This document shows positions 19,786 through 21,326 of a DNA stretch of 64,000 bases, in pieces. Positions within the stretch are counted from its first letter, which is position 1; each line of letters starts with the position of its first letter. The DNA is taken from NCBI GenBank assembly GCA_038087875.1, contig CM075989.1, positions 1,860,001 through 1,924,000 on the forward strand, in the 5' to 3' direction. The DNA is from Malacoraja senta (lineage: Eukaryota). Under the pieces are notes generated by a model. The model worked only from the letters and a program-made list of their open reading frames with translations, was not told the DNA's origin and did no database searches. The translations under genes were made by a program, and so were the position numbers.

Positions 19786-20554
19786 TTACACTATCCTACA
19801 CACACTAGAAGCAATTCTACATTCATACCAAGCCAATTAACCTACAACTCTGTACGTCTTTGGAGTGTGGGGGGAACCAAAGATCTTGGAGAAACCCACG
19901 CAGGTCACGGGGAGAACGTACAAACTCCATACCGGCAGCACCCATAGTCTGGATCAAACCAGTTCTGGCGCTGCAAGACAGCAGCTGTACCGATACATCA
20001 CCGTGCCGCCCTATTCAATCATGGCTGATCTATTTTTCCCTCTCAAACCCATTCCTCATTCCCCCAACCTCATACTGTAGATGTGTAAGAGGTTAGACAC
20101 AAACAAGTGGGACGTTTAAAAGGTTTAGCAGGAAATGCAAACTGGAACGGGAATCAAGGACAAAGCAGGGCAAGTTAATGGTTTATACCCATGTTGATGC
20201 TGACTGTGGGGATCTGGTACTTATGTGAGTTAACAAGGTCAAGGTCAATGCATGAGTTAATGTGGGTGCAGGAGCAGGTTCCAAGGCAGGACTTTGAAAC
20301 TCGATTGTTGGTGAAGATAAGGGATGGGCAACCACCAAAGGAAGATTGAGTGGAGGAAGGAACTGCAGATGCTGGTTCACAACAAAGATAGACACAAAAT
20401 GCTGGAGTAACTCAGTGGGTCAAGCAACATCTCTGGAGAAAAGGAATAGGTGATGTTTCGGGTCGAGACCCTTCTTCGGACTTAATCCCGTAATGTTGGG
20501 TGGTCAATGAGGTACCTACCCTGTAACGTCCTGTGTTCAGTGAAGTACCTGTCC

Positions 20555-21053
20555 TGCTGAACACCTTCGCTCAGTCCGCCTGAACCTACCTGATCTCCCG
20601 GTTGCTAAACACTTTCACTCTCATTCCCATTTCACACTGACCTTTCTGTCCTAGGTCTCCTCCATTGTCAGAGTGAGGCTAAACGCAAATTAGAGGAACA
20701 GCATCTCATGTTTCGCTTGGGCAGCTTACAGCCCAGTGGTGTGAACATTAATGTCTCTAACTTCAGGTAGCCCTGGCATTCCTCTCTCTCTGTCCCCTCC
20801 CCACCCAAGTCTCACCGGCTTCTCATTTTCACCCAACAAACAGCTAACAATGGCCTGTTTCCTTTATCATCGTTACTTTTTTGCATATCTTTCATTCATT
20901 GTTCTTTATCTCTCTACATCATCGTCTATATCTCTTGTTTCCCTTTTCCATGACTAGTCTGAAGAAGGGTCTCGACCCGAAACGTCACCCATTCCTTCTC
21001 TCCAGAGATGCTGCCTGTCCCGCTGAGTTACTCCATCATTTTATGTCTATCTT
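20555..21053 (+). mobile_element. Penelope-like element 3' fragment with intact terminal repeat
   Basis: GIY-YIG C-terminal coding remnant (EHLRS...LEEQHLMFRLGSLQP), 3' UTR and terminal repeat. Confidence 0.8.
20957..20990 (+). ncRNA. Minimal hammerhead-ribozyme-like motif in a PLE terminal repeat
   Basis: CTGAAGA-A-[GGGT CTCG ACCC]-GAAA-CGTC: CUGANGA and GAAA core boxes, a stem II hairpin, a palindromic ACGT stem III and a GUC triplet. Stem I is only 2-3 bp. Activity untested. Confidence 0.55.
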
Positions 21054-21085
21054 CTGTAATGTTCTGTGTTGAGTGCGGTACCTAC

Positions 21086-21326
21086 CCTGTAATAGTCGGT
21101 ACTGTAGACATCCCTTGACATTCCAAAGTCGCCGATCTTGACCTGCACGGTCCCTCCGACCAGGCAGTTGCGAGTGGCCAGGTCCCTGTGTACAAAGTGT
21201 TGTGAGCCCAGGTACACCATGCCCGAGGCGATCTGCGTGGCGATGTTCAACATCTGGGCAATGGTCATCTCCACCTTCATCCGTGGCTGTCCGTCCACCA
21301 GAATCATGGCATCCGGACCGCGAGCC
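21086..21326 (-). CDS. NTRK3: Internal coding exon of the same Trk kinase (kinase insert, catalytic loop, DFG, activation loop)
   Basis: 241 nt (1 nt + 80 codons): (R)[80 protein letters not shown]. Acceptor TTCCACAG| at 21327-21334 and donor |GTAGGT at 21080-21085. Splices in frame to the 1574-1732 exon (DYYR|VGGHTML). [13 protein letters not shown] is TrkC-like. Confidence 0.93.

Follow-up and report, generated by a model that had tools for sequence, protein, structure and literature searches.

A three-unit repeat of the activation-loop splice donor in a skate NTRK3 gene, probably a decaying relic of an old duplication

Behind the NTRK3 (TrkC) exon that ends at the activation-loop motif DYYR, the skate Malacoraja senta carries three 33-bp units copied from the exon end and its splice donor. 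The array is probably the decaying relic of an ancient donor duplication, with its distal site a latent donor lying behind a stop. The duplication is real and previously unremarked, appears older than the first-pass annotation of this DNA had supposed, and has no demonstrated function. Literature searches on TrkC kinase inserts, shark Trk paralogues, splice-site duplication and skate or elasmobranch NTRK3 splicing, largely of open-access main texts, returned no report of the duplication.

Gene identity and exon structure

Two exons of the gene were located on the minus strand of the window, that is, the whole 64,000-nt stretch analysed. The kinase exon (21086–21326), recognised by protein and structure matches, ends at DYYR with a phase-0 donor, and the next exon (1574–1732), placed by protein alignment, begins VGGHTML and is separated from it by an intron of 19,353 nt. 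The proximal, annotated GT donor (21084–21085, minus strand; AGG/GTAGGT, with the slash marking the splice site) connects the kinase and VGG exons in frame, an arrangement shared by 17 of the 19 chondrichthyan models seen. The kinase exon was 93% identical to the representative of a shark/skate TrkC cluster, its best cluster in the database, and 96.5% identical over 85 aa to Amblyraja radiata XP_032906238.1, the closest of six proteins compared; its best PDB matches were TrkC. A midpoint-rooted tree of 32 chosen proteins, with neither shark TrkA or TrkB nor a non-vertebrate outgroup, placed the nine chondrichthyan proteins, including the best matches of the kinase exon, as the sister group of 13 bony-vertebrate TrkC proteins (support 100/100). 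On this phylogenetic placement the gene is NTRK3 (TrkC), not TrkA or TrkB, in agreement with the first-pass annotation.

At position 21273 this exon encodes Val, where the 17 chondrichthyan TrkC models compared have Gly (K-G-E); the Gly codon is present in a contig from another organism (run X2, see below), which makes the Val a lineage-specific change. The acceptor flank of the next exon (1733–1747) translates in frame as LLVLQ, the same five residues that close an insert in a chimaera model, which suggests a splice flank that changes very slowly. Upstream of the kinase exon (21328–64000, 42.7 kb), tblastn with six proteins found no further Trk exon; many decayed reverse-transcriptase frames lie in this region. 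Intronic minisatellites were seen at 4955–5500, 22526–22683, 38298–38453 and 46542–46818, with periods of 11, 35, 16 and 38 bp, respectively.

The 33-bp array and its donors

The first-pass annotation had described a repeat of the Trk exon end and donor with an exact 33-bp period. The three units and their period were confirmed on the minus strand at U3 (21054–21086), U2 (20521–20553) and U1 (20488–20520), each a copy of the DYYR exon end plus donor of the NTRK3 kinase exon; the units themselves are not exact copies, having pairwise identities of 26/33, 26/33 and 23/33 (21–30% divergence). The 37-mer at 21056 matched 31/37 positions at 20490 and 27/37 at 20523, and the next best match on either strand of the whole 64 kb was 22/37. 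The array is beyond chance. A 16-mer occurs at 21077 and 20511 and nowhere else, as had been noted, and a second donor identical to the proximal one does survive at the U2/U1 junction: the distal GT donor (20518–20519, minus strand) has the same 9-mer, AGG/GTAGGT, and lies 566 nt downstream and out of frame.

Among the three copied donors, the one at 20519 alone keeps its GT. The donor belonging to U2, at the U3/U2 boundary (+33), is dead through a change of GT to AC, and no donor follows U1. U3, whose 11-aa read-through appears homologous to an 11-aa insert in a catshark model, has no donor at its end. An in-frame, stop-free insert was consequently not found in the extant skate gene, since the +33 donor is dead and a transcript spliced at the distal donor would carry an extra 566 nt, out of frame, with a stop at 21047–21049. 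Two further candidates were rejected. A putative fourth unit past the second element end matched at best 12/25 positions. The other was a cassette exon with the distal donor as its 3' boundary, for which the sole open in-frame candidate (45 nt) had an acceptor tract of 7 pyrimidines versus 14 for each real acceptor.

The Penelope-like insertion and the inverted element end

U3 and U2 are separated by a 5'-truncated Penelope-like element (20554–21053, plus strand; net 500 bp), antisense to NTRK3, which comprises the end of a GIY-YIG endonuclease frame, a 3' region and a partial terminal repeat, and has 2–3 bp (CT/CTG) common to both flanks. An in-frame TAG just inside the element (21047–21049, minus strand) ends an ORF spanning 21047–21358, two codons past the last Tyr-Arg of U3, which bears out the earlier claim that the element adds a stop. 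Excision of 20555–21053 (499 bp) had been proposed to restore a stop-free frame with a 22-aa insert; the peptide is recovered when 500 bp (20554–21053) are removed, and the excision as originally written shifts the frame. That account also lacked a second feature behind U1, a solo terminal-repeat fragment of the same element family (20350–20482, minus strand), inverted relative to the first and forming with it 98-nt arms that are 90% complementary.

The element shares 85.6% identity over 515 bp with another copy (41724–42237), and about 40 shorter pieces in the window also matched. The frame of the longer copy (42067–42363) corresponded to a GIY-YIG cluster of the atlas (score 0.96; 206/256 features; cluster 51% PF01541). 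A Pfam scan of five element frames, including 42350–42991, returned 0 families, and an Rfam scan gave no match for a minimal hammerhead-type core (CTGA-N-GA / stem / GAAA) that is predicted in the terminal repeat at +20959, so that the family call rests on the atlas match and the anatomy. Compared with Penelope-like elements as described in the accessible part of PMC4209133, the skate element has in common the GIY-YIG frame at the C-terminus and a putative hammerhead-type core in its terminal repeat, but it is decayed and truncated, matches no Pfam or Rfam entry, and carries its core antisense to the TrkC pre-mRNA. The reverse transcriptase (Penelope/telomerase type) is absent from this truncated copy. 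Ribozyme cleavage of the TrkC pre-mRNA was rejected because the intact core is antisense.

Cryptic donors supplied by the element at 20641 and 20589 agree with 8/9 consensus positions, versus 7/9 for the distal donor, and lie nearer to the exon. The inverted element ends are predicted to fold into a long stem with the distal donor in its loop (z −12.6 versus 20 shuffles). As a separate observation, the terminal-repeat fragments at 20350–20482 and 20956–21053 may form a double-stranded stem of about 100 bp in the TrkC pre-mRNA just past the exon, a possible substrate for RNA editing.

The element junction was also found in other read sets. A contig from run X1 covered 21025–21400 with 0 differences (376 nt) and ended 29 nt inside the element; it possibly derives from the source sample and is thus not independent. 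A contig from run X2, which represents another organism, covered 21029–21400 with 16 differences in 372 nt (4.3%) and ended 25 nt inside the element, both overlaps (29 and 25 nt) falling under the 31-letter guideline for bridging. The same junction in an organism 4.3% diverged argues for an old, shared insertion, and these contigs make a private polymorphism of the element, which had been put forward earlier, unlikely. Read depth over the element was very high in all four runs. In the read placement over 20300–21400, which element reads dominated, none of the rows listed (15 of 3,915 joints, 40 of 191 differences, and 32 pieces) lay over U2/U1; no joint free of the element was among these rows, an absence that carries no weight in so small a share of the joints. 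The RNA-type runs X16 and X17 had zero depth over 21225–21400, and their reads at the conserved exon end are probably from paralogues; X16 was flagged as probably DNA.

Constraint on the units

Changes from the three-unit consensus were synonymous in 4/12 cases, versus 25–30% expected without selection (P 0.36–0.50), and at the low power given by 12 changes the units show no sign of coding constraint or purifying selection. The same 12 changes would leave the array stop-free by chance with P 0.54–0.69, and a clean donor 9-mer would be expected by chance at the array's divergence with P 0.31. The exact 16-nt run at the distal junction is the one hint of constraint, marginal and chosen post hoc (P 0.035 for a run of at least 16, with 12 mismatches shuffled over 47 nt); under the same shuffling, the intact distal donor 9-mer had P 0.052. 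The age argument draws on the time of the shark–ray split and on generation lengths. The mutation rate of the epaulette shark is given as 7e-10 per generation in the accessible part of PMC10587355; at a rate this low, neutral DNA can stay alignable across the shark–ray split, and age alone is therefore no proof of function.

Orthologues in other cartilaginous fishes

We compared 19 chondrichthyan TrkC models, comprising 15 of the 40 members of one cluster and all four members of another. Seventeen had no insert at the DYYR/VGG junction, including 15/15 RefSeq models among those compared, two of which come from the same catshark that yielded one of the exceptions. This exception, the Scyliorhinus torazame model GCB63245.1, has an 11-aa insert (VGASLKAHYYR) at the junction, in frame and stop-free, and uses the corresponding donor; in this one model, therefore, a homologous unit appears with a usable donor at the position where the skate donor is dead. 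Over the nine codons that the donor leaves free, the catshark insert lies no fewer than 7 nucleotide changes from U3, compared with at least 11 (mean 15.3) for 116 other read-through peptides. Only 88 of 200,000 random stretches of the window matched the insert as well as U3 did, and its two best matches in the 19,353-nt skate intron were U3 and U1. The catshark and skate units have 5/11 residues in common, while the adjacent exon is 93% identical. These matches suggest that the 33-nt junction copy is probably present in a shark and that the duplication probably predates the shark–ray split, as judged from one catshark protein model.

The other exception was a chimaera model (P0137), in which STDYYR is repeated after three residues (a 9-residue, 27-nt period) and the insert ends in LLVLQ. 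It resembles read-through of both donor and acceptor and points either to a 27-nt repeat or to an artefact of annotation or assembly. A second YYR thus occurred in 2/2 chondrichthyan models extending past the donor, versus 1 of the other 187 distinct continuations. At the DNA level, such a junction recurrence was seen at 0/68 other kinase loci. Searches for further copies were negative within their scope: no skate or shark read-through ORF exceeded 82% identity among the best 120 of 533 matches listed, a pattern scan of metagenomes gave 0 matches, a protein scan gave 80 loci with a best identity of 81% and none at elasmobranch level, and no full-length protein with a catshark-type insert was among the 120 listed of 1,448 matches (cluster representatives only). 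Many one-off extensions and inserts occur in the gene models at this exon among the database matches.

Comparison with known kinase inserts

The locus shares its gene and its DYYR/VGG junction with the kinase-insert isoforms of tetrapod TrkC, and an insert here would sit in the activation loop. Tetrapod TrkC inserts are encoded by separate cassette exons, and mammals also have a 39-aa form. The proposed identity of the junction was upheld for the 14-aa insert, found in models of mouse cluster P0082, and for the 25-aa insert, found in birds, reptiles and mammals. The mouse 14-aa insert and the 25-aa inserts start without Val and hence cannot be GT-donor read-through, whereas the skate candidate extends the donor, carries the YYR end a second time and is blocked in this species. 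We found no homologues of the tetrapod or teleost inserts in the skate intron; five tetrapod inserts of 14 or 25 aa reached best ungapped intron scores of 23–30, versus 19–27 in two control stretches and 84–136 for self-matches. The lack of a homologue, together with the different insert type, places the skate locus outside the tetrapod isoform family, and it would act like a TrkC insert isoform only where a lineage has kept the +33 donor intact. Lineage-specific TrkC inserts at the junction were also seen in models of salamanders (14 aa), flatfishes (21 aa) and stickleback/rockfish (23 aa) (P0098, P0273, P0264, P0349, P0110 and P0119).

Teleost TrkB models offer another likeness, an alternative donor that lies downstream of the same junction by a multiple of 3 nt (70 of 120 matches listed). 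These 70 models (P0277–P0348), nearly all named teleost TrkB (ntrk2a) and favoured by the search, have a 2-aa extension (VG) at DYYR/VGG that implies an alternative donor at +6; unlike the skate array, this is a putative tandem donor in a paralogue without a repeat array. A TrkB-type read-through ORF (P0217, 18 members) has a second YYR about 30 residues after DYYR, by chance or through a separate duplication.

Mammalian TrkC inserts alter PLC-gamma/Shc signalling, as stated in the accessible part of PMC6859819, citing Guiton 1995. The accessible parts of PMC10253963, PMC2120825, PMC13442787 and PMC7016819 contain nothing on the DYYR/VGG junction. In the little skate, ntrk3 is expressed in sensory ganglia for which bulk RNA-seq was made, and the word 'isoform' does not occur in the main text as available (PMC13621994). 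Latent donors behind an in-frame stop are common in introns according to the accessible part of PMC8890436, based on human data. Like those sites, the skate site is an intronic donor identical to the real one and preceded by an in-frame stop; it differs in deriving from a tandem copy of the real junction rather than a chance match; the published data are human, and non-use in the skate is our inference.

Discussion

The array is best explained, in our judgement, by a tandem duplication across the exon/intron boundary, in which about 12–15 nt of exon end and about 18–21 nt of intron start would have formed a 33-nt unit, each copy bringing a further in-frame donor. The skate lineage has three copies, which have since diverged, and one donor lost its GT. 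A Penelope-like element would then have inserted behind U3, bringing a stop and shifting the frame, and behind U1 another element end came to lie in inverted orientation. Normal splicing in this species would use the proximal donor, and the distal donor would be a latent 5' splice site whose use could give only a premature-stop transcript. This relic reading follows from the loss of two of the three copied donors together with the stop and frameshift in the distal extension, from the element at the same junction in the contigs of two organisms, one 4.3% diverged, and from the 15/15 insert-free RefSeq models among those compared. The synonymous share, the stop-free odds and the clean 9-mer odds are compatible with no selection, and the element donors, which are closer to consensus, and the predicted stem around the distal donor point the same way. 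Against it stand the 16-nt distal retention, the catshark in-frame unit with a donor used in a model, and the second YYR in 2/2 models; furthermore, the constraint test is weak (12 changes), RefSeq models miss rare isoforms, and the comparison covers 15 of the 40 members of one cluster. The 22-aa isoform raised in the first-pass annotation finds no support here, given the element at the same site in a second species, the 566 nt with a stop, the insert-free RefSeq models and the lack of any sign of coding constraint. Its broader idea, donor duplication as a route to a kinase insert, keeps some ground through the in-frame, stop-free catshark unit.

A rather unlikely alternative holds that elasmobranchs have conserved the +33 donor and use it as an alternative 5' splice site, which yields an 11-aa TrkC insert with a YYR-like motif directly before VGG; in the skate lineage the array would have grown, and the isoform would have disappeared once the GT was lost and the element inserted. 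The insert in GCB63245.1, its closeness to U3 (at least 7 changes versus at least 11 for the 116 other peptides) and its two best intron matches, U3 and U1, all speak for such use, as do the many vertebrate lineages with modelled inserts at this junction, the 2-aa extension in 70 of the 120 matches listed (nearly all named teleost TrkB, toward which the search was biased) and the signalling effect of inserts here reported in the accessible part of PMC6859819. However, the case hangs on one draft gene model at an exon that gene predictors often extend, two RefSeq models of the same catshark are without the insert, the shark and skate units agree at 5/11 residues against 93% identity in the exon, and no full-length protein with the insert appeared among the 120 listed of 1,448 matches to cluster representatives. 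Extended further, the idea would have cartilaginous fishes evolving their own TrkC kinase insert more than 250 million years ago by exon-end duplication, with a second YYR-like motif in register with the substrate-binding loop, whereas tetrapod inserts push the tyrosines away; sharks would still use it, and in the skate lineage it would have grown to three copies before a retroelement put an end to it. We regard this scenario as doubtful.

Independent duplications of the exon end in skate, catshark and chimaera, arising at a local slippage hotspot and resembling one another through orthologous exon-end and intron-start DNA, appear quite improbable. The chimaera period of 27 rather than 33 nt fits such an origin, its unchanged STDYYR looks younger, and both ends of a unit are common to any copy of this boundary, but the skate and catshark units agree exactly in length (33 nt) and resemble each other in their middle residues, 0/68 other kinase loci show such recurrence, and the chimaera model may be an annotation or assembly artefact. 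Still less probable is that skates keep the distal donor as a regulated unproductive ('poison') site, which would lower kinase-active TrkC by nonsense-mediated decay or give a truncated receptor. The 16 nt kept unchanged at the distal junction (P 0.035) would suit this function, and kinase-less TrkC isoforms are a conserved theme in the accessible part of PMC13442787; yet a predicted stem encloses the distal donor, which faces competition from the nearer element-derived donors and has no upstream acceptor that yields a stop-free in-frame cassette with a pyrimidine tract.

If sharks do use the +33 donor, activation-loop inserts in TrkC would have arisen at least twice and by different routes, the shark form would offer a natural experiment on how the spacing of the loop tyrosines governs signalling, and in the skate a transposon would have abolished a splice isoform. 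Should the donor be unused, as the relic reading would have it, gene models such as GCB63245.1 may hold false inserts and serve as a warning, and the array would be a dated case of a splice-site duplicate that has lasted, without use, in genomes that evolve slowly.
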